NCBI GenBank assembly: GCA_963706735.1
Contig: CAVPNQ010000116.1
Location: forward strand, 2,704-66,703
Length of the DNA: 64,000 nt
Source of the DNA: an uncultured Planctomycetia bacterium
GTDB taxonomy: Bacteria; Planctomycetota; MHYJ01; WSZJ01
Direction of reading: 5' to 3'
Position numbers and translations under genes: made by a program. Numbering within the stretch: the stretch's first letter is position 1; every line of letters starts with the position of its first letter. Under the pieces are notes generated by a model. It was not told where the DNA came from. It saw only the letters and a program-made list of their open reading frames with translations, and made no database searches. Below, one piece after another: positions 3,962-51,173 of this stretch.

Positions 3962-3991
3962 TGACTTAATAAAGCATTGTCTTTATATAAT
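3962..3991 (+). promoter_or_regulatory. candidate sigma70-like promoter giving a leaderless or very short-leader mRNA
   Basis: TGACTT (3962-3967), an 18-nt spacer, then TATAAT (3986-3991), in an AT-rich patch. The ATG at 3998 lies 6 nt after the -10 box and has no SD. Confidence 0.3.
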
Positions 3992-3997
3992 AACTCC

Positions 3998-4852: not shown

Positions 4853-4865
4853 GTAACATCCCGCC

Positions 4866-30343: not shown

Positions 30344-31699
30344 TTAGCGCGCGCCGATCTCCTCGAGCTGCGCGGTGAAATGCCGAAGCGCCCTGGGCTC
30401 CTTCACGATCCGGAGGCCCTTGAGTTCCTTCGCCCTCTTGAACAGCGCGATGGCGTGGCGGGCGACGTACTCGAGATGCGTGTTGGTGTACGCGCGCCGC
30501 GGAATGGCGAGCCGCACGAGGTCCATGCGGCACGTCTCGGAGCCCTTCCCGAACATGAGCGTGCCGATTTCGCACGAGCGGACGCCGGACTCGAGGTAGA
30601 GGGCGCAGACGAGGGCCTGGCCGGGGAATTCGAGGGGGGGGATGTGGGGGAGGAAGGCGCGGGCGTCGATGAAGACGGCGTGGCCGCCGGCGGGCATGAC
30701 GACGGGGACGCCTCCGGCCTGGAGGAGTTCGGCGAGGTAGCGGACCTGGCCGGTGCGGTAGGCAAGGTAGGATTCGTCGAGGCCTTCCTCGAGACCGACG
30801 GCGATGGCGGCGAGGTCGCGGCGGGCGAGGCCGCCGTACGTCGGGAACCCCTCGACGAGGATCAGCCGCTGCTTGACGAGGTCGGACAGATCCCGGTCGC
30901 GGCAGGCGAAGAACCCGCCCGTGTTCGAAAGGCCGTCCTTCTTGCAGCTCATCGTCGCGCCGTCGGCCAGGTCGAACATCGCGCGGGCGATCTCGCGCAC
31001 CGGCCGGTGGTCCTCGTTCTGGTGGATGAACCACGCGTTCTCGGCATACCGGCACGCGTCCAGATAGAACGGGATCTTCCGCTTCCGGCACTCCGCCGAC
31101 ACCGCCTTGAGGTCGGCCAGCGACACCGGCTGCCCGCCGCCTGCGTTGTTCGTCACCGTGCACATCACGAACGGCACCCGCTCCGTGTCCAGCACGCGCC
31201 GCAGTTTCGGCAGGTAAATGTTCCCCTTCGACTCGCACGGGAACGACGCGTCGAACGCGCATTCGCACACGCAGTCCACCGGCTTCCCGCCCGCCGCTTC
31301 AATGTTGGCGCGCGTCGTGTCGAAGTGCGAGTTGCTCGGGATGACGTCGCCGGGCTTCACGATCTGCGAGAAGAGCACGTGCTCCGCGCCGCGCCCCTGG
31401 TGCGTCGGGATGACGTGCTCGTACCCCGTGATCCCCCGCACCGTCGCCTCGAACTTCGCGAACGACCGGCTCCCCGCGTACGCCTCGTCCCCCAGCATCA
31501 GCGCCGCCCACTGCGCGTCGCTCATCGCCGCCCCGCCGCTGTCCGTCAGCAGGTCCACCATCACCATGTCGCTCGACAGCCCGAACAGGTTGCGCCCCGC
31601 GGCCTCCAGCGCCCGCACCCGCTCCTCGCGCGTCGTCACGCGCACGTGCTCGATCGATTTGATGCGGAAGGGTTCCAGCGGGGGCATGGGAGTCGTCAT
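30344..31699 (-). CDS. beta-eliminating lyase (tryptophanase / tyrosine phenol-lyase family)
   Basis: EPFRIKSIE, DLLTDSGGAAMS, GDEAYAGS, PTHQGRGAE, NNAGGQPVS, the PLP-lysine region SCKKDG, FPTYGGL and LRHFTA are collinear with TnaA/TPL as remembered. Confidence 0.9.
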   Translation of the reverse strand: MTTPMPPLEPFRIKSIEHVRVTTREERVRALEAAGRNLFGLSSDMVMVDLLTDSGGAAMSDAQWAALMLGDEAYAGSRSFAKFEATVRGITGYEHVIPTHQGRGAEHVLFSQIVKPGDVIPSNSHFDTTRANIEAAGGKPVDCVCECAFDASFPCESKGNIYLPKLRRVLDTERVPFVMCTVTNNAGGGQPVSLADLKAVSAECRKRKIPFYLDACRYAENAWFIHQNEDHRPVREIARAMFDLADGATMSCKKDGLSNTGGFFACRDRDLSDLVKQRLILVEGFPTYGGLARRDLAAIAVGLEEGLDESYLAYRTGQVRYLAELLQAGGVPVVMPAGGHAVFIDARAFLPHIPPLEFPGQALVCALYLESGVRSCEIGTLMFGKGSETCRMDLVRLAIPRRAYTNTHLEYVARHAIALFKRAKELKGLRIVKEPRALRHFTAQLEEIGAR

Positions 31700-31889: not shown

Positions 31890-32444
31890 ATGACGCAGGA
31901 AGCCCCCGCCCGCCGCATCGCCCGCGACCTCCATATGCTCTCCGACCTCACCCGCCGCATCCTCGAGCCCGAAGTCCACGACGACAGCGGCGACGGCGCC
32001 TCCTTCACCCAGATCGTCATCCTCAAGTGGCTCGACGCCGCGGGCCCCCGCCGCGCCCAGGACGTCGCCAAGTACCTCTCCTCCTCCGCCCCCGCCGCCA
32101 CCCAGCTCATCGGCCGCCTCCGCCGCAAGGGCCTCGTCACCAGCAAGCCCAGCACCACCGACGGCCGCGCCGAGGACCTCTTCGTGACCTCCAAGGCCCG
32201 CGCCCTCGTGCGCCGGCATGAAACGCTCAAAATGAAGCGCCTCGAGCGCCTCTGGAGCGCGCTTCCCGAGTCCCGGCGCAAGCTTGTGGCGCAGGGGCTG
32301 GAAGCGGCGATCGACCTGCTGCTGGCGGACAAGCCCGTGGGTGCGGACATGTGCCTGCACTGCGGGGCGTACGATTCGCCGAACTGCGTGATGAAGAGCC
32401 ACGGGTTCAGCTGCCCGACGGAGAGCTGCCCGGCGGGCCGGTAA
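31890..32444 (+). CDS. MarR-family transcriptional regulator with a Cys-rich C-terminal tail
   Basis: AGGAG SD. The winged-helix region is SFTQIVILKWLDAAGPRRAQDVAKYLSSSAPAATQLIGRLRRKGLV. The tail is CLHCGAYDSPNCVMKSHGFSCPTESC. Confidence 0.75.
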   Translation: MTQEAPARRIARDLHMLSDLTRRILEPEVHDDSGDGASFTQIVILKWLDAAGPRRAQDVAKYLSSSAPAATQLIGRLRRKGLVTSKPSTTDGRAEDLFVTSKARALVRRHETLKMKRLERLWSALPESRRKLVAQGLEAAIDLLLADKPVGADMCLHCGAYDSPNCVMKSHGFSCPTESCPAGR

Positions 32445-32522
32445 AGCCGAAAGACGGGTCTGCGGATGCTGGCGGGAATATAGTTAATCAGCTAGCCTAC
32501 ATAAAAGACCCCGGCATCCGGC

Positions 32523-33680
32523 TTGCAGGAGAAGACGCCCGTGGAAACAGCCCCCGCCGTAGAGCAGGCACGCGCGATCCTGGCCGCCGGCCTCGCTCCC
32601 GCCCTGAAGCGCTCCGACGCCCCCGCATACGGGGTGTTCCCCGTCTACTCCCCCTACGAAATCTACCGCGCCGCGGGCCTCTTCCCCGTCGGCCTCATGG
32701 GCGCGGGCGGCCAGATCGACATCGTCCACGCCGACGCGCGCTTCCAGTCCTTCGTCTGCTCCATCGCCAAGTCCTCGCTGGAGCTGGGGTTACAGAAGAA
32801 GCTGGCGGGGATGGAGGGGGCGGTCTTCCACTCGATCTGCGACGTGGCGCGGAACCTGGCGAGCGTGTTCAAGCGCAACTTTCCCGGGATGCACATCGAG
32901 TTCATCCACCTGCCGCAGAACGCGGCGGGGCCGGAGGCCGAGGACTACCTGGTGTGCGAGTACCGGCGGGTGATGACGGGGCTGGAGCAGAAGCTGGGGC
33001 GGAAGGTGAACGACGAGGCGCTGTCGGCGGCGATCCGGGAGTACAACCGGCCGCGGCGGCTGATGCGCGAGCTGTACGCGATGCGGACGAAGGAGCCCGA
33101 GCGGATCGCGACGTCGGAGATGTTCCCGCTGGTCCGCGCCGGCACGATGCTCCCGGCGGACGAGCACGCCCGGCTCCTCGAGGCCGCGAAGGCGGAGTTC
33201 GAGGCGCGGAAGCCGCGGCGGATGGACCGCGTCAAGGTGGTAGTGGAAGGGGCGTTCTGCGAGCAGCCGCCGGTCGGGCTGATCGAGACGCTCGAGGGCG
33301 CGGGGTGTTACGTCGTGGACGACGACTTCTGCGCCGGCTGGCGGTGGTTCTCGAGGGACGTCCCGGAGGGACCCGACCCGGTCCGGCAACTGGCCCGCGC
33401 GTACCTCGAGACCGGCCGCGCCACCTCGACGCGCTTCAATCCCGGCAAACCCCGGCACAAGGACCTGGTTCGCCGAGTCCGCGAGACGGGCGCGCACGCC
33501 GTGCTCTTCATGCCGGCGAAGTTCTGCGAGCCGGCGCTGTTCGACTACGTGATTTTCCGGCGCGAGCTCGAGAAGGAGAACATCCCCCACCTCATGGTGG
33601 AGTTCGAGGAAAAGATGTGGACGTTCGAGCGCACGCGCGGCGAGGTCGAGACGTTCGTTGAATCCCTCCTGTTCGATTAG
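32523..33680 (+). CDS. benzoyl-CoA reductase / 2-hydroxyacyl-CoA dehydratase family subunit (BcrC/BzdN-like)
   Basis: Family signatures YSPYEIYRAAGLFPVGL, FVCSIAKSSLE, ICDVARN and KFCEPALFDY. The ORF-track start is a TTG, so the true start is uncertain. Confidence 0.8.
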   Translation: MQEKTPVETAPAVEQARAILAAGLAPALKRSDAPAYGVFPVYSPYEIYRAAGLFPVGLMGAGGQIDIVHADARFQSFVCSIAKSSLELGLQKKLAGMEGAVFHSICDVARNLASVFKRNFPGMHIEFIHLPQNAAGPEAEDYLVCEYRRVMTGLEQKLGRKVNDEALSAAIREYNRPRRLMRELYAMRTKEPERIATSEMFPLVRAGTMLPADEHARLLEAAKAEFEARKPRRMDRVKVVVEGAFCEQPPVGLIETLEGAGCYVVDDDFCAGWRWFSRDVPEGPDPVRQLARAYLETGRATSTRFNPGKPRHKDLVRRVRETGAHAVLFMPAKFCEPALFDYVIFRRELEKENIPHLMVEFEEKMWTFERTRGEVETFVESLLFD

Positions 33681-33689
33681 AGAGGCCCC

Positions 33690-34955
33690 ATGGCGGACTA
33701 CGGCACGGCGGTTCACGAGGCGTCCCGCAAGGCGATGGGGGCGTGGTACGACCGGCTCGCGGTCGCCGCGAAGACCGGGTCCCCGTCGGCGTACATCATG
33801 ATCGCCGGGAACTGCGTCGAGATCCTGCGCGCGTTCGACATCGAGCCCGTCTTCCCCGAGGTCAACGCCCTTCAGCTCGCCATCCGCAAGCAGTCCCTCC
33901 CCCTCATTCTCAAGGCCGAGGAAATGGGGTACTCGAGCGACAACTGCGCGTACGTGAAGGCGGACGCGGGGTTCACGTTCGGCGAGGGGGCGCCCGGGGA
34001 CGGCAAGATCCCGAAGCCGACGTTCATCGTGTGCAACTTCGTCGGCTGCAACGTGTACATCAAGTGGTTCGAGCACTGCTCCGAGTTCCTGAACGTCCCG
34101 CTGACCATGCTCGACGTCCCGTTCGTGCGCGGCGACCGCCCTTCCGACGGCGACGTGCGCTACGTGGTCGCCCAGCTCAAGAACCTCATCGCCGCGTGCG
34201 AGCAGGCGACCGGGAAGAAGTTCGACATCGACAAGCTGCGCGAGATCTGCCGGCTGTCGGCGAAGGCGGAGGAGGGGTGGCAGAAGTGCAAAGACCTCTG
34301 CAAGAACACGCCCTCCCCGATGGACGCGTACTTCGACGCCATCAATCTCATGGGGCCGATCAACGTGCTGCGCGGCACGCAGGACGCCGTGGATTTCTTC
34401 GACGTGGCCGTGCGCGAGTACGAGGCGCTGGTGAAGGACAAGAAGGGCCCGATCCCGCAGGAAAAGTTCCGGATCGTCGTCGAGGGGCCGCCGCCGTACC
34501 CGTTCTACCGCCAGTTCCGCGACCTCTTCGCGGCCTGGGGCGCCGTGGCGGTGCAGTCCACCTACTCCACCGTCGGCGGCATCTGGGAATTCGGATTCCG
34601 TCACGACCCGAAGAACCCGCTGGAGTCGATCGCCGAGCAGATGCTGATGGAGAACCTCTGCAACCGCTCGCTTCTCGACCGCTACAAGCAGATCCGCCGC
34701 TACGTCGAGGAGTGGAAGGCCGACGCGCTGGTGATTCATTCCGTGAAGAGCTGCCGTCTGTTCTCCGCGGGCCAGGGAGACATGCGCGACTACTTCGCCA
34801 ACGAGCTCGGCGTCCCCACGCTGCTGGTGGAGTCGGACCTCGAGGATCCGCGCTACTACGCGCAGGCCATGATGAAGAACCGCATCGACGCGTTCTTCGA
34901 GTCGCTGGAGCACCGCAAGCTTCTGAAGAGACCCCAGGGCCGGACGACGGCCTGA
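33690..34955 (+). CDS. benzoyl-CoA reductase / 2-hydroxyacyl-CoA dehydratase family subunit (BcrB/BzdO-like)
   Basis: [38 protein letters not shown] and [16 protein letters not shown] are present. Confidence 0.8.
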
Positions 34956-34974
34956 CGGAACAGGAGAAGACACG

Positions 34975-35826
34975 ATGATTTACGGAGCAGGCGTCGACGT
35001 CGGGTCCACGCAGACCAAGGCCGTCATCCTCGGCGACGGGCGCGAGATCGTCGCGCGCGCGCTCGCCATGACCGGCGCCAACGTGACGAAGGCTGCCGAA
35101 CGCACCTTCAACGAGGCCCTCGCCGCCTCCGGGCTCGCGCGCGAACAGGTCGGCTACATCATCGGCACCGGTTACGGCCGCTACAAGGTCACCTTCGGCG
35201 ACTCCCAGGTCACCGAGATCTCCTGCCACGCCCGCGGCGCCCACTTCATGTTCCCCGGCACCCGCACCGTCATCGACATCGGCGGCCAGGACACGAAGGC
35301 CATCCGTGTCGGCACCCAGGGCGAGGTCGTGGACTTCGCCATGAACGACAAGTGCGCCGCCGGCACCGGTCGATTCCTCTCCGCCTCCGCCGAGGTCCTC
35401 GACCTCCCCCTCGACAAAATCGGCGCCCTCTCCCTCGAGGGCAAGGACCCCGTCCGCCTCTCCACCGTCTGCACCGTTTTCGTCGAATCCGACATCATGT
35501 CCTACCTCGCGCAGAACAAGAAAGTCCCCGACATCCTCGCCGGCGTCCACCGCGCCATCGCGGCACGCACCATCTCCCTCCTCCAGCGCATCGGCATGGC
35601 CGCCGAGTACACCATGACCGGCGGCGTCGCCCGCAACGTCGGCATGGTCACCTGTCTCGAGGAAAAGCTGAAAGCCCCCCTCAACGTCAGCTCCGATTCC
35701 CACTTCATGGGCGCCATCGGCGCCGCCCTCTTCGCCCTCGAACGCGCCGAGCTCGCTTCGCGCGGCAAACGCGAGGCCGCCGTCATCGGCGGCTGGGAAG
35801 ACGGCAGCCAGGAGACGACAAAATGA
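34975..35826 (+). CDS. BcrAD/BadFG-type ATPase subunit (activase-like), copy 1
   Basis: [41 protein letters not shown] and TGGVARN are present. Confidence 0.85.
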
Positions 35827-36614
35827 TCAGCGCCGGAATCGACCTGGGAAGCGGCTTCTCGAAGGCCCTCATCTACCGCGACGACGGCAAAGTCCTGGCG
35901 CGGGCGTTCGCGAAGACCCGCGCGGACTTCGACAAGGCCGCGCGCGAAGTCCTCGACGACGCCCTCGGGCAGGCGAAACTCACTCAATCCGACATCGCCT
36001 ACGTCTGCACCACCGGCCTCGGCCGCTACGCCGTCTCCTTCCGCGACATCCAGGTCACCGAAATCACCGCCGCCGCCCGCGGCGCCTGGACGCTCTTCAA
36101 CCAGGCCCAGTTCGTCCTGGACCTCGGCGCGCAGAGCACCCGCGCGATCCGGCTCCGCGACAACGGCAAGGTGAAGGAATTCCAGACGAACGAGAAGTGC
36201 GCCGCCGGCGGCGGAGCGTTCCTCGTCCGGGCCGCCAAGTACCTCGAAGTTCCGCTCGACTCCCTGGGCAAGCTCTCGATGGACGCGAAAGCCTCCCAGG
36301 CGATCTCGAGCGTCTGCGCCGTTCTCGCCGAGACCGAGATCATCAACCACGTTTCCGAGAACATCCCGATCGGCGACATCGCGCGCGGCATGCACGAATC
36401 GATGGCCGACCGCGCGATGGGCCTCCTCAAGAAGGTCGGCCTCAACGGCCCGCTCTGCCTCGTCGGCGGCGTGGCGATCCAGACCGGCTTCGTCGAGGCC
36501 TGCCGCCGGAAGTTCGGCGTGCCCCTCCTCGTCCCGGAGAATTCGCAATACGCCGCGGCGCTGGGCGCTGCCGTGCTGGGGATGCAGCGGGCGAAGAAGA
36601 GGGTGGCTGTTTAG
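35823..36614 (+). CDS. BcrAD/BadFG-type ATPase subunit, copy 2
   Basis: The ATGA start overlaps the previous stop. [35 protein letters not shown] and VGGVAIQ are present. Confidence 0.85.
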
Positions 36615-36814
36615 GTAGGAAGGCTGGCGAAGGCTGGCGAAGGCGTGCGAAGGCTGGCGAAGGCTGGCTAAAGGCTGCCTGAGGCCAAGCTGGGCGGGCC
36701 GTAGCCCCAAAGCGTCCCGACTTGTCTTCCAGTCGACTGACTCCAGCCAAGCTTGCGAGTGTTCCTTCTGCCAGCCTTCGCACGCCTTCGCACGCCTTCG
36801 CCAGCCTTCCCTAC
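36615..36814. repeat. long hairpin whose arms are 10-nt tandem repeats
   Basis: AGGCTGGCGA-type units occur 5 times at 36621-36670. They are mirrored by GCCTTCGCAC-type units at 36774-36808. The element sits between two convergent stop codons. Confidence 0.8.
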
Positions 36815-37845
36815 TTCCCCGGTATGACCACGCTCCTCACGCTCTTCCCCGCTCTCAGCTCGTCAAACGCCTCGTTCACTTTCTCCAGCGGCCGGCGCGA
36901 CGTCACCAGCGGGCCGAGCTTGTACTGGCCGCTTGCGCACATGGCGAGGACGCGCGGGAAGTCGACGGGACGGCAGCCGAGGGAGCCGACGACGTCCTGC
37001 TCCATGAACATGATCTTGCCGGCAAGCATCTCGACCGGCTTGTCCGCGAAGCCGACGATGCAGAGGCGGCCGCCGGCGCGGATCGAGTTGTGGGCGATGG
37101 GAATGACCTTGTGGCTGCCGATGCACTCCATGGCCTTGTCCACCCCGCCGCCAGTCTTCTTCTTGATCGTCTTGGCCACCTCGGGATCCTTCCCGTCGAT
37201 CGTGTCCGCCGCGCCCAGCTGCTTTGCCAGGACCAGCTTGGCCGGATCGAGGTCCACCGCGATGACGTGCGCGCCCGCAATCGCCGCGAACTGCACCGCC
37301 GACAGGCCGACGCCGCCGCAGCCGAAGATCGCCACCGTCTCGCCCGCACGGATCTGCGCCCGGTGCACCACCGCGTGGTACGCCGTCGTCACCGCGTCCG
37401 CCACGATCGAGGCCTCCACCGGGTCGAGGCCGGCGGGAAGCGGAATCAGGTCGCGCGCCCGCACGCACACGTACTCCGCGAACGCCCCGTCAATGTGGTT
37501 CCCCAGCATCTGCATCTTCTCGCAGATGTTCGACCGCCCCGTCCGGCAGAGCGTGCACTCCCCGCACGTCAGCACCGCGGGGACCAGCACCGCCTGCCCG
37601 ATCTTCAGATTCGCAACCCCCGCCCCCAGCGCGTCGATGTGCCCCGCCGGCTCGTGCCCCAGGATGATCGGCGGCTTCTTGAACGTCGGCACCCCATGAT
37701 CCAGGTAGTGCAGGTCCGTATGGCACAGCCCGCACGCCGCCACCTTCACCCGCGCTTCCCCCGCCGCAGGCTCCGGCACCGGCACGTCCTTGATCTCCAG
37801 CCCCTTGGCCCCCGCGAAGTACACCCCCGCCTTCATCGTCGCCAT
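36811..37845 (-). CDS. Zn-dependent alcohol dehydrogenase family (6-hydroxycyclohex-1-ene-1-carbonyl-CoA dehydrogenase/Had-like by context)
   Basis: CGLCHTDLH, GHEPAG, CGECTLCRTG and GCGGVGLSAVQ are present. The start MATMKAG overlaps the upstream stop (TAATG). Confidence 0.8.
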   Translation of the reverse strand: MATMKAGVYFAGAKGLEIKDVPVPEPAAGEARVKVAACGLCHTDLHYLDHGVPTFKKPPIILGHEPAGHIDALGAGVANLKIGQAVLVPAVLTCGECTLCRTGRSNICEKMQMLGNHIDGAFAEYVCVRARDLIPLPAGLDPVEASIVADAVTTAYHAVVHRAQIRAGETVAIFGCGGVGLSAVQFAAIAGAHVIAVDLDPAKLVLAKQLGAADTIDGKDPEVAKTIKKKTGGGVDKAMECIGSHKVIPIAHNSIRAGGRLCIVGFADKPVEMLAGKIMFMEQDVVGSLGCRPVDFPRVLAMCASGQYKLGPLVTSRRPLEKVNEAFDELRAGKSVRSVVIPGK

Positions 37846-38603
37846 TACGCGTCCTCCCACTTCGGTTTCCGTTTCTCCAGGAATGCCTTCAGCCCCTCGG
37901 CGTTGTCCTTCGAGGGAAGCGTTTTTTCGAGGTACGTCCGGCACGCCGCGGCATAGGCCGCGCGGCGGTTCGGGGCGGAAGCGGCTTCCCGGAGGCCCGT
38001 CTTGGCGGCGCCGAGGGCGGCGCCGGAGAAGCCGGCCAGTTTCGCGACCAGCGCTTCGACCTTCGCGTCGAGTTCCGCGTCCGGCGCGGAGTCGTTCACG
38101 AGCCCCCAGGCCGCAGCCTCTTTGCCGCTCAGCGTGCGGCCCGTGTAGACGAGTTCGGCCGCGCGCGCGACGCCGATGCGGGCCGGCAGGTCCACCGCCG
38201 CGGCGGGCGGAAAAACGCCGAGCGTGATCTCCGGGACGCCGAGCTTCGCTTCGTCCGCCGCCAGCACGAGGTCGCACGCCGCGGCGAGTTCCAGACCCGC
38301 GCCGAGGCACGCGCCGCGCGCCACGGCAACGATCGGCACCGGCGCTTCCGCGATGGAATTGAGCAGCCCCTGCAGCGTCTCGAGCAGCCCGGGGCCCTTG
38401 TCCGGGAAGTGTTCGCTGATATCGGCGCCCGCGGAGAGGTGCTTCCCTGCCCCGCGCAGCACGGCCACGCGGTCGGCGGGCTTGAGCGACCGGAATGCGC
38501 CGGTGAGTTCCTGCATCGCCGCGCAGGTCAGGATGTTGAGCGGCGGGTTCGCGAGCGTGACGTGCGCCGCGCCGCCCTTCCGTTCGACGGTGACAAGGCT
38601 CAT
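37845..38603 (-). CDS. enoyl-CoA hydratase/crotonase (dienoyl-CoA hydratase/Dch-like by context)
   Basis: VTLANPPLN, LRGAGKHLSAGADI, ARGACLGAGLELAAACD and GVPEITLGVFP are present. The ATGA start overlaps the SDR stop. Confidence 0.75.
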   Translation of the reverse strand: MSLVTVERKGGAAHVTLANPPLNILTCAAMQELTGAFRSLKPADRVAVLRGAGKHLSAGADISEHFPDKGPGLLETLQGLLNSIAEAPVPIVAVARGACLGAGLELAAACDLVLAADEAKLGVPEITLGVFPPAAAVDLPARIGVARAAELVYTGRTLSGKEAAAWGLVNDSAPDAELDAKVEALVAKLAGFSGAALGAAKTGLREAASAPNRRAAYAAACRTYLEKTLPSKDNAEGLKAFLEKRKPKWEDA

Positions 38604-39319
38604 GCGAGCTGACCTCCATCCACGCGGATGACCTCGCCGGAAATGTGGCGCGAGCCGGGCGCGCACAGGAACGCGACGACTTCGGCGACGTCCTCGGGCG
38701 TGGCGATGCGCCCCAGGGCGGTTTCCTCCGCGAGCTTCTTCTTCGTCTCGGGCGGGACGTCCTTCGTGAGTTGCGTCTCGACCAGCCCGGGCGCGACCGC
38801 GTTCACGTTGATCCCGTCGCGGCCGAGGTCTCGCGCGGCCCCGCGCGTGAGCCCGATCAGCCCTGCCTTCGCGGCCGCGTACGCCGCCGTGCCGCGACGC
38901 GCCCGCAGCGCCAGGGTCGAAGCGATATTCACGATCCGTCCGCCGCCGGCGGCGGTCATGGCGGGGGCGACCTCGCGGATGAAGACGTACGCGCCGGTCA
39001 GGTCCACGCCGATCGTCGCGTCCCAGTGCTCCTGCGACAGGCGCGGAAGCGGCCCGCCCAGGGAGATCCCGGCGCAGTTCACGAGCGCCTTCACCGGCGC
39101 GCCGCGCGCGGTCAGCCACGCCACGGCCTTCTGCGCCGTCGCCGCTTCCCGCACGTCGCCCTTCACCGCCGCGTTTCCGGCCACGTCCACCACGCAGACG
39201 AAGTACCCGTCCCGCTCGAGACACCGCGAGATCGCCGCGCCGATCCCGGCCGCGCCGCCCGTCACGATGGCGCCGCGCGCCGACGATTTTGCCGGCCGCT
39301 TATTTCCCCGTGACGGCAT
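38600..39319 (-). CDS. short-chain dehydrogenase/reductase (FabG-like)
   Basis: TGGAAGIG, NCAG, the YAAAKAG catalytic motif, and a PG..T tail are present. Confidence 0.8.
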   Translation of the reverse strand: MPSRGNKRPAKSSARGAIVTGGAAGIGAAISRCLERDGYFVCVVDVAGNAAVKGDVREAATAQKAVAWLTARGAPVKALVNCAGISLGGPLPRLSQEHWDATIGVDLTGAYVFIREVAPAMTAAGGGRIVNIASTLALRARRGTAAYAAAKAGLIGLTRGAARDLGRDGINVNAVAPGLVETQLTKDVPPETKKKLAEETALGRIATPEDVAEVVAFLCAPGSRHISGEVIRVDGGQLA

Positions 39320-40349
39320 GGCCGCACGCTCCGCAGAACTTGAAGCCGGCCGGCATGCCCTTGGTCCCGCACTTCGGGCAGTCCGCCGACGGCGGCCCGA
39401 AGGGGTACTCGGGCGAATCGTCGTTCGCCCACTTCTCCCGCATCTTCCCCCAGTTGGTCTTGCGCTTCTCGGAGAACGCCCGCATGCCTTCCTGCGGCTC
39501 GGGCGAAGTGAAGTGCAGCGCGAGCCAGTCCTGCGCGTGGCCGACGGTCGCGTGCCAGACCGCTTCCTTGTTCTGGTTCACCTGCACCTTGGTGTAGCGC
39601 AGGCACTCGGGGAACTTGTCCTTGAGGTTGGCGACGTACTCGGCGACTTTCGCGTCGAGCTGCGAGAGGTCGATCGCCCAGCCTTCCTTCTTGTCCGCGG
39701 CCATCTTGACCTGGGTCTCGGTCGGGTTTTCGACGAACTTTCCGTCCTTCGTCACGCTGGGTGCGACCGCGTTGACGAGCCCCCACTCCAGCGCTTTCCG
39801 CGCGGGGATTTTCGGGTTCATCATGAGCATCTCGCGCGCCCGCCGGTCGCCCACGACCATCGGCAGCCACTGCGTCGCGCCGCCGCACGCCACCGACCCG
39901 ACGCTCGTCCCCACCTGCCCGACCCATGCGTGCTCCGCGATGACCGCCAGGTCGCACGCCAGCTGCGACTCGTTCCCGCCGCCGGCCGCCATCCCGTTGA
40001 TCCGCGCGATCACCGGCTTCGGGCAGTGCATGATCGCCTCGAGATACGCCCGGAACAGGCTCATGTACTTCCAGTACTCCCGCGGCTTCTTCACGTAGAT
40101 GTCCGCGTACTCCTTCACGTCCCCGCCGGTGCAGAACGCCTTCTCCCCGGCCCCCGTGTACACCACCGCCGCCACCCGGTCGTCCCACCCGGCATCCTCG
40201 AACGCCCGCGCCAGCTCCCTCAGCGCACCCGTCGAGTACGCGTTGTAGTTCTGCGGCCGGTTGATCGTGATCGTCGCCACCCCGTCCTTCTTCACGTACA
40301 GGATTTCCTTGAACGAGGCGCCGTCGCCGAGCGGTTTGAATTCGTTCAT
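39300..40349 (-). CDS. MenB/Oah-type crotonase (6-oxocyclohex-1-ene-1-carbonyl-CoA hydrolase-like by context) with a C-terminal zinc-ribbon tail
   Basis: ILYVKKDGVATITINRPQNYNAYS, YTGAGEKAFCTGGD and INGMAAGGGNESQLACD are present. The tail is CPKCGTKGMPAGFKFCGACGH. Confidence 0.7.
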   Translation of the reverse strand: MNEFKPLGDGASFKEILYVKKDGVATITINRPQNYNAYSTGALRELARAFEDAGWDDRVAAVVYTGAGEKAFCTGGDVKEYADIYVKKPREYWKYMSLFRAYLEAIMHCPKPVIARINGMAAGGGNESQLACDLAVIAEHAWVGQVGTSVGSVACGGATQWLPMVVGDRRAREMLMMNPKIPARKALEWGLVNAVAPSVTKDGKFVENPTETQVKMAADKKEGWAIDLSQLDAKVAEYVANLKDKFPECLRYTKVQVNQNKEAVWHATVGHAQDWLALHFTSPEPQEGMRAFSEKRKTNWGKMREKWANDDSPEYPFGPPSADCPKCGTKGMPAGFKFCGACGHAVTGK

Positions 40350-41485: not shown

Positions 41486-41746
41486 GTCCTGATTGGGTCA
41501 CCGAAATGTAACGAAGGGATTCCCCGGTAACAGGATTCGGGGCATTTCCAGAACGGAACAACGCCACAAAGCCTTTGCGCTGATTTACTTATACAAAGAT
41601 TAACCTTCTTCATCTTTCGGCCCACGGCTTGCAACCTCCGGTTTTCCGTCCGCGTGTCCCGTCTGCACAAACCCCGCGACGACCCCGACCGGAGGCAATC
41701 CGGGAAGGTTCGGCGCCACCGATGTTTTTATTTCGGAGCCTCGACC

Positions 41747-44700
41747 ATGCGCATTTCCCGCCGCTTCAACAATCGCGGCTTTGTGATCCTCGTCGCGCTC
41801 GGCGTCCTGGGCATCCTCGGCCTCCTCGCCGCGGCCTTCGCCACGATGTCGCGCGTCGAGAAGTCGGCGTCCTCTTCCTACGTGGACAAGGTCCGCGCCC
41901 GCCTCCTCGCCGAATCCGGCGTCGAGCGCGCCCTGGCCTCGATCCGCGCCCGCACGCAGATCCAGGCGTGGGACGACGCGCGCAACGACTGGTACTACCG
42001 CGAAATGCTGAACGCGCCGGTCGGGACGCTCACCTACTCCCCCGCCGCGATCGCCGCGCTGGGCGGATACACGCCGAAGCGCGCCTACGGCACGCCGCCG
42101 CGGCGTCTCGAGCAGGTCTGCGACGAAGCGATACTCAGCAGCGCGGTGACCGGGCTCTCCTTCGTGGACGCCTCCCGCCCCTGGATGAGCGGCGGCATGC
42201 CGGGCACCTACGAGCTCGACGGCGACACCTACGCCGTCAAGGCCCTGGACTGCGCTTCCATGCTGTTCGTCAATGACCAGAACCCCCAGATCAAGCGCCT
42301 CCTCAACAACCTCGGCTCGATCATGAGCCTCGACGCCGGTCTCCCGACGCCGTTCAAGCTGGGCGACGAGATCGTCGCGGTCGCCAAGCTGCGGAACCGG
42401 CCGTTCGCGCACAAGGGCGAGGTCCTCGACCTCGTGTTCGTCCCGAAGCTCGGCGCCGTCGAGGCCCGCGCGCGATTCGACAAGGTCCGCGACTTCATCA
42501 CCTGCCACGGATGGGTGGACTACACGACGATGCATTTCGGCCCCAAGCCGGTCGGATTCGCCGCGTCCGCGCCTCCCACCCCGGCCGACATCATCGATCG
42601 CGGCGGCGTCGTGACGCAATTCGTCCCCGCCTCGGGCTCCGCCACCACGGCCGCCAAGTTCGGCGGCAACAACCAGTGGAAAGAGCCGCGCGCGCCGATC
42701 AACGTCAACACGGCGAGCCGCGAAGTGCTGGTCGCGATGCTCTGGGGGCTGACGGCTAAGTTCGTGGACTACGATCACGCGAGCGGCCACCTGGTGACGC
42801 GCGACATCACGATCTCCCAGGCCAACGCCGAGGCCGCGGCCGATCACATCATCGCCGCCCGGTTCTCCTTCGGCACGCCCGCCGGCGCCTGGTCCTTCAA
42901 CGACTGGATGCACTTCCGCTCCGAGGTCATCGACACGATCCCCGGCCTCGACCGCTTCCAGCGCGCCCTGATCCACGCCAACGGCAACCCGAACACGGAC
43001 ATCCGCAAGCTCAACCCGGACCTGCTTCTGGTGGACCCGAATCCGCTGACCGAATCGGTGGACCTCGTGCGCCTCGACAAGTCCGACATCACGCAGAAAT
43101 CCACCGAGTGGACGTTCTCGTCGATGGGCCTGTTCGAGATCGAGTCCCTCGGCCGCGTCACGGCGGGCGGGAAGCTCCTCGCGGAAGAGAAAGTCACGAC
43201 GGTCGTGAAAGTCTTCGACGCGCTGCGCTTCACGACGCAGGAACAGTTCGAGAAGGACCGGAGCTGGACGAACGACGACCCGGCGAAGACGGAGGGCAAC
43301 CTCTACTCGGACGGATTTCCCCCGGTCGTCTCGATGCCGGAGTACCCGTACAACAACCCGAAGCTGATTCCCAGCCCGCGGTACAAGAGCGCTTCCGGCG
43401 ACCTGGCCTGGGCGTCCGACTATGACGGCTACCTCACGCTGAACGGCCCCGCCAACGTCATGGCCGGCCAGACGCCGACCGACTTCAACACGTCCGCCGC
43501 CAAAATGTGCCGCAAGCCGCACGGGGGCTGGCCCGCCAACTGCCCGTCGTGGGCCGTGCTTCCCAACGAGTCCGGCATCGACTGCAAGGTCAGCGGCGTC
43601 TGGGGATTCAACCTCGGCAAGCTCGGGCCCAACCAGTCCCACGCCAACGTCCCTTCCAATACCCAGAAACACGTCCTCCCCGCTCCCACCAACCCGGAGT
43701 ACACCTACGCGTCCCCGAACTGCGAGGGCGTCAAGGTCACCAACTCCCCCGCCAACTCGCTGTCCTCCGATACCGAATACTCCTCGGCCTGGGGCATCGC
43801 TCCCAAGCGCCCCTACCAGATCCAGCCCGGCGGCGCCCTCAACGCCATCGCTACGGGCTTCTTCGAGGACGGCGCCGATATCCAGCCCTTCGGCCTCTAC
43901 GTGAACTACCTCAAGCGCCGCCGGTTCCACACGATCTGGGGCGATGAACTCCCCACCGCTCGCTTCACCGTCGAGTTCGCCTACAAGCCCGAGGTCGATC
44001 ACTGGGAATGGGGGAAGGGTCTCGCGCAGACTCCCGCGGCCAAGGCGGCCAACGCCGGGCCGGTCTCGAAGATGCACCTCTGGGGGCTGGGCGCCGCGAC
44101 GCACGGGACGAACTACGAGCAGTGGGTTTACGTCCAGGGATCGCGCATCTTCTACGACCTGTACTACGGCGGGCAGCACTACGTGATGTACGCCGACCAC
44201 GACTTCCGGGCGCACACCTGGCACCACATCGAGTTCAGCGTGATCGATGGCCAGTCGAAAACGCTCGCGGACGGGTCCACCGTCTTCGTGCCGCCCAACG
44301 CCATGCTCTTCGTGGACGGCAAGCCCGCTTCCGGCATCGTCGGCGCCGGTGAGGACGTGAACACCAAGCTCGGCAAGGCCGTCTTCGACGTCAAGGCGAT
44401 GGCCCTCCCCGTCCCGTTCATCGGCGTCTACCCGAACAACGACTGGGGCGTCGGCCCGCGCATGGAAATCGGAAGCAAGCTGCAGAACACGATGGACGGA
44501 TTCGGCATGAGCCAGCCCTCCACCATCGGCACCATCGATAACCTCGTCATCCACCACTGGCGCAGCCACGAGTCCGCCTTCACCCCCCGGAACCGCTTCC
44601 ACAGCATGTCCTACTACGACGGGACGACGTTCAAGAGCGGGAAGGGCTACAAGGGAGAGAAGGCGGGGGTCTACAAGAAGCGGCTGGCGGCGGTGGAGGC

Positions 44701-45064
44701 GGCTGTGGCAGCGGGGGGCGAGGTGACGATCGGGACGGTGACGTGCACGCATTACCACCCGTTCCACGTTCACCTGTACGGGCACGACGGTTCGGCGCCG
44801 ACGACGTCGTTCGGGCACATCACGCCGTCGATCCGGACGAAGACGGGCGGAAGCTACCTGGACTCTTACTACTACGACGGGTGTGCGGGGCTGCCGGTGA
44901 AGACGGCGGTGAAGGCGGGGACGGAGGTGTACTACATGGGGTGGTTCGAGGTGGCGGCGATGGTGCCGGTGACGATGTCGCCGATCCTCGACGACCTGAC
45001 GGTGACGTACTTCGCGGAGCCGAAGGTGCTGTACCGGCACAGTTCGGTGGAAGTGCGCCGGTAA
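41747..45064 (+). CDS. giant GspK-like pseudopilin-type protein with a LamG-like domain (1105 aa), paralog 1
   Basis: N-terminus RGFVILVALGVLGILGLLAAAFATMSRVE. GspK-type motif PINVNTASREVLVAMLWGL. LamG-like motifs HTWHHIEFS...NAMLFVDG...IDNLVIHHW. His-rich C-terminus CTHYHPFHVHLYGHDG. Confidence 0.85.
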   Translation: MRISRRFNNRGFVILVALGVLGILGLLAAAFATMSRVEKSASSSYVDKVRARLLAESGVERALASIRARTQIQAWDDARNDWYYREMLNAPVGTLTYSPAAIAALGGYTPKRAYGTPPRRLEQVCDEAILSSAVTGLSFVDASRPWMSGGMPGTYELDGDTYAVKALDCASMLFVNDQNPQIKRLLNNLGSIMSLDAGLPTPFKLGDEIVAVAKLRNRPFAHKGEVLDLVFVPKLGAVEARARFDKVRDFITCHGWVDYTTMHFGPKPVGFAASAPPTPADIIDRGGVVTQFVPASGSATTAAKFGGNNQWKEPRAPINVNTASREVLVAMLWGLTAKFVDYDHASGHLVTRDITISQANAEAAADHIIAARFSFGTPAGAWSFNDWMHFRSEVIDTIPGLDRFQRALIHANGNPNTDIRKLNPDLLLVDPNPLTESVDLVRLDKSDITQKSTEWTFSSMGLFEIESLGRVTAGGKLLAEEKVTTVVKVFDALRFTTQEQFEKDRSWTNDDPAKTEGNLYSDGFPPVVSMPEYPYNNPKLIPSPRYKSASGDLAWASDYDGYLTLNGPANVMAGQTPTDFNTSAAKMCRKPHGGWPANCPSWAVLPNESGIDCKVSGVWGFNLGKLGPNQSHANVPSNTQKHVLPAPTNPEYTYASPNCEGVKVTNSPANSLSSDTEYSSAWGIAPKRPYQIQPGGALNAIATGFFEDGADIQPFGLYVNYLKRRRFHTIWGDELPTARFTVEFAYKPEVDHWEWGKGLAQTPAAKAANAGPVSKMHLWGLGAATHGTNYEQWVYVQGSRIFYDLYYGGQHYVMYADHDFRAHTWHHIEFSVIDGQSKTLADGSTVFVPPNAMLFVDGKPASGIVGAGEDVNTKLGKAVFDVKAMALPVPFIGVYPNNDWGVGPRMEIGSKLQNTMDGFGMSQPSTIGTIDNLVIHHWRSHESAFTPRNRFHSMSYYDGTTFKSGKGYKGEKAGVYKKRLAAVEAAVAAGGEVTIGTVTCTHYHPFHVHLYGHDGSAPTTSFGHITPSIRTKTGGSYLDSYYYDGCAGLPVKTAVKAGTEVYYMGWFEVAAMVPVTMSPILDDLTVTYFAEPKVLYRHSSVEVRR

Positions 45065-45114: not shown

Positions 45115-45559
45115 GGTGAAACGGGGGTCCCGGGAGGCCACGGATTTGGGCTATTTTTCCCAATCCAGTGGTTCGAGGTCATGTTTTTCGATGGGGTAAC
45201 AGGTCACCCGGGAGTAACGAAATCCGGCGCTTCCTCAAAATGAAAGAATGTCATTTACGTTGCAACTACATTCCTATACATCACTTACAAACATTAAGAA
45301 AACTAACAATGGCCCCTGTTTTGCATTAGTTCGCCTCCATACATCCTGTCCCTATCCTCCTGATGGAGAAGCGCTGCAGGTAGTACCGAGGGCCTAGACC
45401 TCCCGCCAACTCGGAACCCCGCCCGAACGTGACCTGGCCAAAAACCCGTCACCTTCCGCTGGCTTCCGAAGCGAGACGTTCCGGTCATCCTGATCCCACC
45501 GGTGGGAATCAGGTCTACCCCTCAGACTGCAACCCACTTCTTTCTTTCAAGGAGGTCAC

Positions 45560-48500
45560 GTGCTCGATCGAAGCCTTGAACGCCAGCGTGGATTCGTCCT
45601 GCTGGTTGCTCTCGGCGTCCTCGGTGTTCTGGGCCTGCTCGCAGCGACGTTCGCGACCCTGTCGCGCGTCGAACGGGCGGTCTCGAACAGCTATGTAGAC
45701 AAGGTCCGCGCAAAGATGCTCGCCCAGTCGGGAGCGGAGCGTGCGATCGCGTCCATCCGGGGTCGCGCCATGGTCCAGGCCTGGGACGATGCCAGGAATG
45801 ACTGGTACTACCGCGAAATGCTGAACGCGGAAGTCGGCGGACTGGTCTACCCCGCCGCCGTCAAAGCCAGCATCTGGAAGTACACGCCCACCAGGTCCTA
45901 CGGCATGCCGCCGCGGTCCCTGGAAGCGTCGCTGGACGACGGCGTCGTGAACGGCGTCCCGAACGGCATCTCTTTCCCCCAGGCTGCCACGCCGTCCGCC
46001 AACGAGCCCTTCAGCGGACAGTTCCCCGGCACCTACGAGAGCCGCGGCGACGTGTACGCCCTCAAGGTCCTCGACTGCGCGTCGATGATCAACGTCAACG
46101 ACGGCAGCTCGCAGGTCGTCCGCATGCTGAACAACCTCGGTTCGATCCTCAAGTGCGCCGACGGCACGCTGGTCAGCGCCGGCGGGTTCAACCTCGGCAC
46201 CAAGATCCAGACCAAGGCGATCAGCCGCGGAAAGCCCTTCAACAACAAGTCCGAGATCCTCTCCGAGGTCTTCATCGCCGACCCGCTGTTCGCGGGGAAC
46301 GCCGCCGCGGCGCGCAGGCGCTTCGACGCGGTCCGCGATTTCATCACGTGCCATGGCTGGGTGGACGGCATGACGATGAAGTTCAACAACACGTGGACCG
46401 GCGCGACCGACTACACGGGCGGGAGCTACGCTTCGGCCTCGACCGGCGGCAGTGGCGGCGGCGGTGGTGGTGGCGGCGGCGGAACGGGCGACCCGACGGA
46501 CCCGAAGGATCCGATCGGCGGGACTGACCCGATCGATTACAAGATGGCCCCGGGTCTTCCCGAGTTCGCGACCAGCCCTCTCTACTCGATCCAGTCGATC
46601 ACCCCCGGCGTTTACGCTTCGATCCCGTCCACGCGCGTCCTGGCGGCCCCCGGGCCCCAGAAGGCGAAGGACGTGAAGAAGGGCGGCGCTTTCCGTCAGT
46701 TCGTCACGGGGCAGGGCACGAATGCGGCCCTTGGCGGCGAGACGGCGGCGGGCAAGTTCGGCGGCACCTACTACCAGGGTGAGCCCCGGACGCCGATCAA
46801 CATCAACACCTGCACGAAGGAAGTCCTCGTCGCGACGCTGATGGACCTGGAAGCCAGCTTCTGGGACTACGCAGTCGTGTCCGAGTCGGCCGTTCCGAAG
46901 GAGTACACGTCGTCGCTCGGCCTCGTCACCGTGAAAATCACGAAGGCGGAGGCGGAGAGCGTCGCGGACTTCCTCATCAGCGGCCGCTTCACGAACGGCT
47001 CCCCCTCGGGCGCCTGGTCCTACAACGACTGGATGCACTTCGAGGACGACGTCCTCCTGGCCATCCCGGGGATCACGCGCTTCCAGAAGGCCCTCATCAA
47101 GGCCAACGCGAACCCGAACTCGAACATCAAGAAGATGTGCCCGGACCTGATCCTTGTGACCTCGAATCCGTCGATCAACCCTGACGAGCTGGTCCGCATG
47201 GACAAGAGCGACATCAAGGTGAACTCGACGGACTGGACGTTCAGCTCGAACGGGATTTTCGAGATCGAGAGCATCGGCCGCGTGTACAACGCCGGGAAGA
47301 TCATGGCGGAAGAGAAGCTGGAGACGGTGGTGAAGGTGTTCGACCAGGTGGTGTACACGACGCAGGAGCAGCTCGAGGACGACCGGGTCTGGACGACCGA
47401 GGACTCGAAGGAAGGCGACCTGCTGGCGGGCGGGTATCCGCCGGTGATTTCGATGCCCGAGTACGTGTACAACTCCGCGGCGAGCGCGAGCCACTATCGC
47501 AGCCAGACGGGGGACGAGACGTGGTGCGCGGACTACGAGGGGTACCTGATCCTCAACGGTCCGGCGAACGTCCAGGCCGGACAGACCCCCGGCCCCGCGA
47601 AGGACGGTGCGGCCGGGTATGGTGAAGGCAACGTGGCGGAGGCCTGCTGGGGTTCGGATCCGTACAACCTGGCGAAGGTCAGGCCGAATACCGGCGTCCA
47701 TTCCTCGGCGCTGGTCGGCGACGGTCCGCCGGCCGGCCTGAAAGCATGCGCCGTGTCGTTCGTCGCAGGATTCAACATGGGCAGCCTGTACCCGAACCAG
47801 AGCCACCGGAACAAGTATCACGATCCGGCCCAGGGCGGGACCGGCACGCCGAGGCATCCCGAGTACTCCTACTCGATGCCCCACTGCTTCGCTGACGGCG
47901 CTTACATGTCCGCTTCGCCGGCGAATTCATTCACGCAGGACACGAACTACAGCAGCTCGGGCTACTCGCCCAAGGAGCCTTACCAGATCAAGCCCACGAT
48001 GAGTGGCGCCAACTTCTGGGACGGCGGCTGCGACCTCCAGAACTTCGGCGTCTACATGAACCAGACCCGCCGCAACCGCTTCCATACGTACTGGGCGGAC
48101 GAGGTTCCGGCGCCGAACTGCACGCTCGAAATGACGGTCAAGCCGGAAATCGACCTGTGGACGTGGGCCCCGAAGAGCAAGATGCACACGGTGGACAACG
48201 GATGGGCGACCTACACGATCATGCCCTGCAAGCGGCAGTTCCTGTTCGACTGGGGAACCGGCGGGACGAAGGGCATGAACTACACGATCCGCGGATATGC
48301 CGATCTCTCCCGGGTCTACCTCGAGTTCTACCACCACAGCACGGGCGCCTTCTACGTGCTCTGGCACGACAACGTCTGGAAACCCCACACCTGGCACCAC
48401 GTGGAGTTCTCCTGGTCCAGCGCCCAGGAAATCACGAACTCGGACGGCACCAAGACGGTCGTCCCGCCGAACGCCATGCTCTTCGTGGACGGTTCGACGA

Positions 48501-50836: not shown

Positions 50837-50936
50837 GGTGGATTCCTTGGAGTTCTGAATGCTGTTGGTGGCGCCGTGGCGGACCACGATACCCCAATAG
50901 TGCGGAATCCGGCCATCGGGGAATACAATCCGGGGC

Positions 50937-51173
50937 ATGAAATACCTGAAGACTTCCCAGTTCGTGCCGATGAAGGGCGAGGCGTGGATGTACTACGAGT
51001 GCGAGGACGACCTGACGGTCAACCGGGTCGTGACGCACATCCCCATGACCGGGGAATCGACGCTGACGCCCGACCCCGTGATCCGGGTGCTGTTCCGCCC
51101 GGAGATGATGCTGCCGTCGGCCCAGGCGGAGTTCGACAAGTACTGGGCGATCGGGGAAAAGAAGCCGAAGTAG
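50937..51173 (+). CDS. small hypothetical protein (78 aa)
   Basis: The ORF is divergent from the acyl-CoA dehydrogenase gene. Its GC3-rich codon pattern is consistent with coding. No motif was recognised. Confidence 0.5.
   Translation: MKYLKTSQFVPMKGEAWMYYECEDDLTVNRVVTHIPMTGESTLTPDPVIRVLFRPEMMLPSAQAEFDKYWAIGEKKPK

Follow-up and report, generated by a model that had tools for sequence, protein, structure and literature searches.

The class I, or ATP-dependent, aryl-CoA reductases tested so far fall into three recognised types, namely the benzoyl-CoA reductases (BCR), the methylbenzoyl-CoA reductases (MBR) and the BZD type. A class I benzoyl-CoA reductase abolishes the aromaticity of benzoyl-CoA in an oxygen-independent way, by a two-electron, ATP-dependent reduction to cyclohexa-1,5-diene-1-carbonyl-CoA. 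The best-studied class I benzoyl-CoA reductases are those of the denitrifying Betaproteobacteria Thauera and Aromatoleum (PMC11971306). The systems used for comparison here are BcrCBAD of Thauera aromatica K172, the 3-methylbenzoyl-CoA reductase MbdONQP of Thauera chlorobenzoica (Protein Data Bank (PDB) entries 9g87 and 9gai), BzdNOPQ of Aromatoleum sp. CIB (BzdNO, 8s02) and the (R)-2-hydroxyisocaproyl-CoA dehydratase HadBC with its activator HadI (3o3m, 4eht), which has the same folds and the same type of ATP-driven electron injection. We analysed a stretch of 64,000 nucleotides from an uncultured Planctomycetia bacterium (contig CAVPNQ010000116.1 of assembly GCA_963706735.1, positions 2,704 to 66,703 of the forward strand), referred to throughout as the window, in which four genes for predicted reductase subunits converge on an operon of four putative ring-processing genes. 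In our judgement this locus probably encodes an ATP-dependent, ferredoxin-driven reductase of the BCR/MBR type together with a modified, beta-oxidation-like ring-opening set under MarR regulation. The comparisons below support the view that the predicted reductase is a new member of the BCR/MBR ("Thauera-type") class I aryl-CoA reductases and belongs to a distinct third lineage, sister to the methylbenzoyl-CoA reductases, with benzoyl-CoA as its most likely substrate.

Ten genes lie between 30.3 and 40.4 kb of the window, and the nine that a preliminary description of this DNA had located were found at the coordinates given there. Gene prediction was aided by the G+C content of third codon positions (GC3), in a window of 63-71% G+C where long spurious open reading frames (ORFs) are abundant; values of 0.88-0.95 in the called frames set the real frames apart. 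The description had a MarR gene followed by four plus-strand genes, and Pfam agrees. The MarR regulator (31890-32444, plus strand, 184 aa; MarR/MarR_2, 3e-9) precedes a gamma subunit, B1 (BcrC/MbdN-like; 32523/32541-33680, 385/379 aa; PF06050 (HGD-D), 1e-76), a beta subunit, B2 (BcrB/MbdO-like; 33690-34955, 421 aa; PF06050 (HGD-D), 3e-67), an alpha ATPase, A1 (MbdQ-like; 34975-35826, 283 aa; PF01869 (BcrAD_BadFG), 2e-64), and a delta ATPase, A2 (MbdP-type; 35823-36614, 263 aa; PF01869 (BcrAD_BadFG), 3e-50), all on the plus strand. Pfam E-values of the enzymes span about 1e-47 to 1e-77. Two HGD-D subunits together with two different BcrAD/BadFG ATPases constitute the composition of a class I operon, and the order gamma-beta-alpha-delta is that of bcrCBAD. 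The stop of A1 and the start of A2 overlap as ATGA at 35823-35826, which can be read directly in the sequence and suggests the translational coupling that had been proposed. The sizes of 421, 283 and 263 aa stand as first given; the 385 aa reported for B1 are probably 379. Its ORF opens at TTG 32523, and a GTG at 32541 stands 8 nt after an AGGAG; this GTG is most likely the start because a related Planctomycete locus (L006) has an ATG at the aligned position and a frame break upstream. Synteny between locus L006 (90% identity) and the window is complete and runs from the lyase and MarR genes through the four convergent genes and beyond.

Among proteins of known structure, B2 matches MbdO with 297 bits, HadB with 171 and BzdO with 103, and B1 matches MbdN with 263 bits, HadC with 170 and BzdN with 104. 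A1 matches MbdQ with 373 bits (67% identity) and HadI with 246, and the corresponding scores for A2 are 203 bits (MbdQ), 188 (MbdP) and 174 (HadI). The full-length BcrB/C, MbdO/N and BzdO/N sequences are those published as source data by Fuchs et al. 2025 (PMC11971306). B2 shares 39% identity with BcrB, 40% with MbdO, 32% with HadB and 26% with BzdO; for B1 the values are 36% (BcrC), 40% (MbdN), 31% (HadC) and 25% (BzdN). BcrB and MbdO are themselves just 32% identical, so the window proteins can be regarded as short-branch members lying between both characterised types. A concatenated gamma+beta tree of the window and 20 relatives (neighbour-joining, 792 columns, 300 bootstraps) recovers the window lineage as monophyletic (100% bootstrap support) within a clade shared with Bcr and Mbd, without Had and Bzd (100%), and as the sister group of Mbd (82%). 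In the gamma-only tree the lineage joins BcrC and MbdN (100%), and in the ATPase tree A1-type genes group with MbdQ (100%) and A2-type genes with MbdP (60%). On these trees the window falls within the BCR/MBR group as part of a separate, well-supported lineage.

The same folds and domains would also be expected if the four genes encoded a 2-hydroxyacyl-CoA dehydratase, or another non-dearomatising radical enzyme of the BCR/HAD family, with two activator paralogues. All four Pfam domains are common to dehydratases, the catalytic subunits are 31-32% identical to HadBC and the ATPases 37-41% identical to the dehydratase ATPase, and annotations of metagenome-assembled genomes (MAGs) label relatives "2-hydroxyacyl-CoA dehydratase". 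Phylogeny decides otherwise: the lineage groups with Had in 0% of 300 bootstraps, as against 100% for the clade of BCR, MBR and the lineage, in line with the distinction from dehydratases drawn in the preliminary description. That description had also treated two ATPases plus two B/C-type subunits as the mark of a class I reductase, and the split of the ATPases into an alpha (MbdQ) and a delta (MbdP) type agrees with it. Two distinct and apparently translationally coupled ATPases contrast with the dehydratase system, whose one homodimeric activator is used catalytically. The HadB and HadC models give 198 and 207 bits, where the cut-offs are 750 and 700, and the module of an Acidobacterial relative (L049, discussed below) stands among benzoyl-CoA pathway genes. 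We therefore regard the dehydratase reading as effectively excluded, its residual probability being very small.

Residues of the beta subunit were mapped with the BzdO structure paper (PMC11971306) as a guide. B2 C86, C120 and C355 align with BzdO C95, C128 and C380, the ligands of the aqua-[4Fe-4S] cluster; E57 aligns with Glu65, the proposed proton donor; and Y88 and Y292 align with Y97 and Y298, the thioester-binding tyrosines. All six are invariant in 22 of 22 relatives. The catalytic Cys, Glu and Tyr are found in HadB too and are therefore non-discriminating, so that these residues show what is predicted to be a competent active site, not its specificity. The gamma subunit is more diagnostic in this respect. 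Its C79, C106, C246, C262 and C335 (numbered in the ORF of 385 aa) do not vary in 24 of 24 relatives, and the five-Cys pattern is shared with BcrC and MbdN alone; HadC, BzdN and the double-cubane protein DCCP lack C246 and C262, which again separates the lineage from the dehydratases. The preliminary description had pointed to the Cys ligands of the [4Fe-4S] cluster that bridges the ATPases, and these are conserved, two per subunit (A1 C127/C166, A2 C126/C165), in alignment with the Cys of MbdQ, MbdP and HadI. One Rokubacterial beta subunit (P0099) carries Arg in place of the second cluster-ligand Cys (YVGRNVY versus FVGCNVY) and keeps the adjacent Cys115; either an error in the sequence or a ligand that has shifted might account for this.

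Several observations weigh against the assignment to the BCR/MBR type. The catalytic subunits are just 36-40% identical to characterised ones, compared with 31-32% to HadBC. The beta-only neighbour-joining tree, rooted on a partial DCCP sequence, is poorly resolved (lineage with BcrB and MbdO, 44%), and all trees are neighbour-joining trees on crude distances, with one sequence per reference type and without BadDEFG, BcrA and BcrD. At the position of BzdO His131, B2 has a Tyr (Tyr123, invariant in the lineage), whereas BcrB and MbdO carry Phe; HadB has Val there. The closest relative, locus L008 (92% identity), is without the convergent operon at this place, and no paper that characterises or singles out the lineage was found in literature searches. 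Pfam detects no aryl-CoA (AMP-binding) ligase in the window, which also holds no classical ferredoxin, no CxxCxxCxxxCP motif and no 2-oxoglutarate:ferredoxin oxidoreductase. A ferredoxin and a system that reduces it usually, though not obligatorily, accompany such a reductase. The earlier remark that neither a ferredoxin nor an aromatic acid-CoA ligase was visible in the window is borne out, apart from a Fer4_13 fusion 28 kb away, and the cluster is therefore to be seen as a complete reductase with a ring-processing core, not as a complete pathway. Finally, all window proteins score below the NCBIfam equivalog cut-offs for BcrABCD, Had, Dch and Oah.

For the reductase, the last of these points can be put in proportion. 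The BCR equivalog models (TIGR02259, TIGR02260, TIGR02261 and TIGR02263) are the best or near-best NCBIfam matches for all four subunits. The window beta subunit scores 327 bits on the BcrB model (MBR 221, cut-off 487), the gamma subunit 289 bits on the BcrC model (MBR 222, cut-off 421), the alpha subunit 197 bits on the BcrA model (MBR 221, cut-off 578) and the delta subunit 173 bits on the BcrD model (MBR 119, cut-off 313), with BcrB and BcrC as the best NCBIfam models for beta and gamma and BcrD as the best NCBIfam BCR match of A2. The characterised MBR thus scores below the window proteins on three of the four models. The missed BCR cut-offs are uninformative because this genuine reductase scores lower still on those three models, and the cut-offs therefore delimit the narrow Thauera/Rhodopseudomonas BCR type alone.

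Compared with the individual systems, the window resembles MBR in its four-subunit make-up, with alpha and delta ATPases that are short (~270 aa), in identity (67% for alpha, 40% for beta and gamma) and in the same gamma five-Cys and beta three-Cys plus Glu patterns. It differs in that MbdO has insertions absent from B2 and a Phe at Tyr123, in that the host belongs to another phylum, and in that no mbd-type ferredoxin or ligase genes are seen near the window module. BcrCBAD shares the gene order and the gamma Cys pattern; A1 is without an extra region of ~170 residues found in the BcrA model, of which it matches positions 231-432 of 432. BzdNOPQ belongs to the same superfamily, and since its catalytic Cys, Glu and Tyr align with those of the window the same mechanism is presumed. 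It differs in its identity of only 25-26%, in scores of 105, 106 and 182 bits where the cut-offs are 454, 449 and 380 (TIGR03190, TIGR03191 and TIGR03192) and in His131 of BzdO. The six-Cys site with which BzdN holds its [8Fe-9S] double cubane was not found in the gamma subunit: of the six candidate positions, three are invariant in the lineage and a fourth is found in 3 of its 24 members, the window among them; the lineage also has two different extra Cys.

The four plus-strand genes face a tightly overlapped minus-strand operon, in which the crotonase, short-chain dehydrogenase/reductase (SDR), crotonase and Zn-dependent alcohol dehydrogenase (Zn-ADH) previously listed were all recovered. 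The operon lies 196 bp from the reductase operon, an arrangement that matches L006, and its genes overlap by 1, 4 and 20 nt. The Zn-ADH (36811-37845, minus strand, 344 aa; Pfam ADH_N and ADH_zinc_N) is 89% identical to its L006 homologue in the same place, and its best NCBIfam match is TIGR03201, Had (258 bits, cut-off 339), making it a candidate 6-hydroxycyclohex-1-ene-1-carbonyl-CoA dehydrogenase. The short crotonase (37845-38603, minus strand, 252 aa; ECH_1, 9e-47) has TIGR03189, Dch, as its best NCBIfam match (165 bits, cut-off 292) and is a candidate dienoyl-CoA hydratase. The SDR (38600-39319, minus strand, 239 aa; adh_short_C2, 1e-50) is FabG/PhaB-like, with NCBIfam matches to FabG (187 bits) and acetoacetyl-CoA reductase (161 bits), and is a candidate 3-hydroxypimeloyl-CoA dehydrogenase or BadH-like enzyme. 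The long crotonase (39300-40349, minus strand, 349 aa; ECH_1, 7e-51, with a weak Zn_Ribbon_1 match) is of the MenB/BadI/Oah type and a candidate ring-cleaving hydrolase, with TIGR03200, Oah, as its top match (223 bits, cut-off 464) and BadI at 176 bits. It matches solved MenB-type structures over residues 12-200 alone, and its C-terminus is a CxxC...CxxC zinc ribbon, which L006 and a Thermofontivivens locus (L044) also have. The Acidobacterial Oah-like homologues lack the ribbon, and one of these passes the Oah equivalog cut-off. For the Zn-ADH and the two crotonases the best NCBIfam matches are thus Had, Dch and Oah, not fatty-acid enzymes, although the scores lie well below the equivalog cut-offs, at about half of them.

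The same enzyme families stand beside the reductase in Thauera (Dch/Had/Oah) and in Rhodopseudomonas palustris (BadK/BadH/BadI), and the window differs from the Thauera set in its shorter Oah-like protein with the zinc-ribbon end and in one extra SDR. The preliminary description had assigned the operon to the Thauera-type set; the top matches uphold that assignment, and the low scores together with the extra SDR leave room for the Rhodopseudomonas-type route. The operon, with one SDR beyond the Thauera set, could therefore act either by Dch, Had and Oah followed by the SDR or by a BadK-BadH-BadI-like route. In the latter, the short crotonase would be BadK, the SDR BadH and the long crotonase BadI, leading to pimeloyl-CoA and leaving the Zn-ADH spare. 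BadH is FabG-like, as is the window SDR, the operon holds exactly one dehydrogenase beyond the need of either route, and the L044 homologue of the long crotonase scores equally on Oah, BadI and MenB (207, 203 and 203 bits). On the other side, Had, Dch and Oah are the top NCBIfam matches for three of the four proteins, and no BadH model is among the 25 matches listed for the SDR.

Gene neighbourhoods bear on the same question. Genes were called in 83 related loci by a per-locus codon log-likelihood model and then clustered, and an SDR recurs beside the module in 18 of the 83. Many Acidobacterial loci have an ADH and a crotonase (ECH) after the module on the same strand, often with an SDR. In the one such locus that was scored, L049, the genes right after the module pass the Had cut-off (433 against 339 bits) and the Oah cut-off (554 against 464 bits), and the top match of the next gene is Dch (215 bits). 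On this evidence the SDR adds to the Thauera-type set and does not replace part of it. The Dch-Had-Oah route is preferred because the Acidobacterial SDR occurs near homologous ADH and Oah-like genes that are Had and Oah equivalogs in L049, and we consider the BadK-BadH-BadI alternative rather improbable. This Acidobacterial context is the strongest indirect evidence that the lineage may form the dienoyl-CoA from benzoyl-CoA.

The lineage is large. The beta subunit has 2825 clusters at 90% identity with E <= 1e-20 among the candidates scored, and at least 526 relatives are encoded among 600 pattern-matched stretches in a scan of one genome per GTDB species. At 50% clustering the lineage is reduced to one or two representatives, within a BCR/MBR super-group of ~15 clusters, three of them BcrB-like and some seven MbdO-like. 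An exact-sequence match to the beta subunit was returned from a single 1.8-kb contig alone. The best 80 relatives are all from MAGs and comprise Candidatus Brocadiia (92% identity), Phycisphaerae, Rokubacteria/Methylomirabilota, Acidobacteriota, Binatia, "Deltaproteobacteria", Chloroflexi and Thermoanaerobaculia. The nearest relatives are Planctomycetota MAGs, in keeping with the host with features of the PVC group that had been suggested. The accompanying idea that such a host would be unexpected for this pathway did not hold, as most of the 600 stretches encode relatives and metagenome papers already report MAGs from several uncultured phyla that carry class I BCR genes.

Almost all of the related loci retain the order gamma-beta-alpha-delta; the surrounding context varies by lineage and in several cases includes genes linked to aromatic catabolism. 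In locus L005 the module is followed by IorA (618 bits), IorB, a three-subunit Mo enzyme and an aminotransferase, with the best match of the Mo enzyme being the alpha subunit of 4-hydroxybenzoyl-CoA reductase (621 bits, below the cut-off), and several loci carry 2-oxoacid:ferredoxin oxidoreductase genes of the Ior/POR type. Loci from Rokubacteria/Methylomirabilota (L025-L029, L031, L034, L037, L039 and L041-L043) have a Mo enzyme set inserted between the beta and alpha genes, consisting of a 912-aa Mo-bisPGD oxidoreductase, a 4Fe-4S subunit of 212 aa and a DmsC/NrfD-like membrane anchor of 292 aa, with a TetR gene upstream and POR-type 2-oxoacid:ferredoxin oxidoreductase genes downstream. In subunit sizes and pattern the set resembles phenylacetyl-CoA:acceptor oxidoreductase (PadBCD), which it may tentatively represent; there is no curated model, and the best match is PhsA-like (153 bits).

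A conserved operon in Phycisphaerae and relatives (L002, L003, L009, L010, L015 and L017-L022) includes the four BCR-like genes, which are preceded by a further HGD-D gene, one activase, a DUF2889-AMP ligase of ~1140 aa, a thiolase and a FadB-like protein of ~835 aa. A single HGD-D gene was seen in this upstream set; it is cut by the edge of the locus, which leaves a pair unconfirmed. The gene content suggests that the operon may convert an aryl-hydroxyacyl or aryl-propionyl compound to benzoyl-CoA and then reduce the ring. The single-activase HGD-D set coexists with the four-gene module in one operon, and the two systems are therefore distinct, which is a further point against the dehydratase reading.

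Benzoyl-CoA need not be the physiological substrate. With the same dearomatising mechanism, the enzyme could act instead on a substituted aryl-CoA, such as hydroxy-, amino- or methyl-benzoyl-CoA from tyrosine or tryptophan breakdown. Processing of the substituted ring would in that case fall to the divergent Had/Dch/Oah-like enzymes together with the extra SDR. The sister relationship to the methylbenzoyl-CoA reductases, the distance of the Had/Dch/Oah-like proteins from their cut-offs, the unusual zinc ribbon of the Oah-like one and the conservation of the extra SDR are all compatible with this, as are the Tyr that replaces the BcrB/MbdO Phe beside the catalytic cluster and a TnaA/TPL-family lyase that adjoins the module in two Planctomycete lineages. 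Benzoyl-CoA is favoured by L049, where the module directly precedes Had and Oah equivalogs, which act on unsubstituted intermediates, and no window gene points to a particular substituent. In addition, the title of a 2018 report by Tiedt and colleagues reportedly presents a benzoyl-CoA reductase of denitrifying bacteria as catalytically versatile and as key to breaking down methyl- and halobenzoates; such versatility makes a separate specificity unnecessary. On balance a substituted substrate, the main rival reading, seems unlikely. We are similarly doubtful of a bolder version, in which the lineage would be a third type of ATP-dependent aryl-CoA reductase that is distinct in function and specialised for the ring-substituted compounds to which tyrosine or tryptophan is broken down, e.g., hydroxy- or aminobenzoyl-CoA, with a non-canonical ring-opening set (zinc-ribbon Oah/BadI-like hydrolase plus extra SDR) and a Cys-rich, possibly redox-sensing MarR. 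If it were true, Planctomycetes and other uncultured phyla of soil and groundwater would dearomatise amino-acid-derived aromatics anaerobically.

The analysis establishes gene content, family placement, conserved ligands and recurring synteny, whereas the substrate (most likely benzoyl-CoA), its product, the part played by each downstream enzyme and the mode of regulation are inferred. The proposed mechanism is drawn by homology from that of BzdNO (PMC11971306) and from MBR, for which a structure is in the PDB. The four plus-strand genes would form a gamma-beta-alpha-delta heterotetramer acting as an ATP-dependent class I aryl-CoA reductase. A reduced ferredoxin, encoded elsewhere, would reduce the [4Fe-4S] cluster that bridges A1 C127/C166 and A2 C126/C165, and ATP hydrolysis would push the electron to a very low potential. 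The gamma subunit, with its five-Cys FeS site, would relay the electron to the aqua-[4Fe-4S] cluster that three Cys of the beta subunit (C86, C120 and C355) ligate. This cluster would donate first a hydrogen atom and next an electron to the aromatic ring of benzoyl-CoA, or of some close analogue, with E57 as proton donor and cyclohexa-1,5-diene-1-carbonyl-CoA as the predicted product. The short crotonase would hydrate this diene as Dch does, the Zn-ADH would oxidise the 6-hydroxy group as Had does, the zinc-ribbon long crotonase would open the ring hydrolytically in the manner of Oah or BadI, and the SDR would oxidise the resulting 3-hydroxyacyl-CoA (3-hydroxypimeloyl-CoA). Repression of the operon as long as no aromatic acid or aryl-CoA is available is the probable role of the MarR protein with its Cys-rich tail.

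The value of the window lies mainly in its representing a large, environmentally widespread lineage for which literature searches found no biochemical study. Its members occur widely among uncultured Planctomycetota, Acidobacteriota, Methylomirabilota, Binatia and Chloroflexi of soil and groundwater, and metagenome studies count such genes as "bcrABCD" for anaerobic aromatic degradation, without a biochemical anchor. Characterisation of one member would validate or correct the inferences drawn on the anaerobic turnover of lignin- and amino-acid-derived aromatics, and would add a short-branch, apparently slowly evolving representative for studies of the evolution of the family.

Several features around the module deserve mention. 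Divergent from marR lies a TnaA/TPL-family beta-eliminating lyase (30344-31699, minus strand, ~451 aa; Pfam Beta_elim_lyase, 5e-65), with a likely start at ATG 31699. It scores 613 bits on the NCBIfam "tryptophanase" subfamily model (cut-off 285) and is indistinguishable between tyrosine phenol-lyase (TPL, 436 bits) and tryptophanase (430 bits) in its PDB matches, which leave phenol and indole release as alternatives. The lyase family adjoins the module in L006, L020 and L022 as in the window, across two separate Planctomycete lineages with differing arrangements, and an association with the module, possibly as a feeder of aromatic amino-acid breakdown, may be supposed. The C-terminus of MarR (window 32300-32444) forms a five-Cys tail, CLHC...C...C...C (CLHCGAYDSPNCVMKSHGFSCPTESCP); the protein is 80% identical to the L006 MarR, and all five Cys are kept. 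The tail may be a site for a metal or an FeS cluster and may sense the redox state or oxygen, which, if true, would suit the control of an oxygen-sensitive reductase.

Between marR and the gamma subunit gene, a leader (32445-32540, plus strand) that was aligned with L006 and L008 contains an AT-rich box, ATAGTTAATCA, within an otherwise 67% G+C genome, a 16-nt box, CGGCATCCGGCTTGCA, which is invariant in L006 and L008, and the AGGAG Shine-Dalgarno sequence. The boxes are candidate promoter/operator elements. The 196-bp convergent intergenic region (36615-36810, not assigned to a strand) contains five tandem 10-nt units (GAAGGCTGGC) and their reverse complement, giving a long hairpin with arms of 46 nt that are 91% complementary (RNA fold -132.5 kcal/mol, z = -10.4). 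Within the 64-kb window the GAAGGCTGGC motif occurs only here, and the hairpin is probably a bidirectional terminator or a REP-like element. An Rfam scan and promoter/terminator scans of the region returned nothing relevant.

Further from the module, the sole Fer4 domain of the window is that of the Fer4_13-metallo-beta-lactamase fusion (3965-4852, plus strand), 28 kb from the reductase, and it is followed by a small Rieske protein (4857-5303, plus strand). An acyl-CoA dehydrogenase (49616-50992) has no diagnostic match and is separated from the cluster by two large proteins without Pfam matches. ORFs at 41654-45064 (plus strand), 45494-49252 (plus strand) and 18112-21276 (minus strand) encode 1050-1250 aa with coding-type GC3 and no Pfam match, and the first of these has a homologue in the same place in L006.

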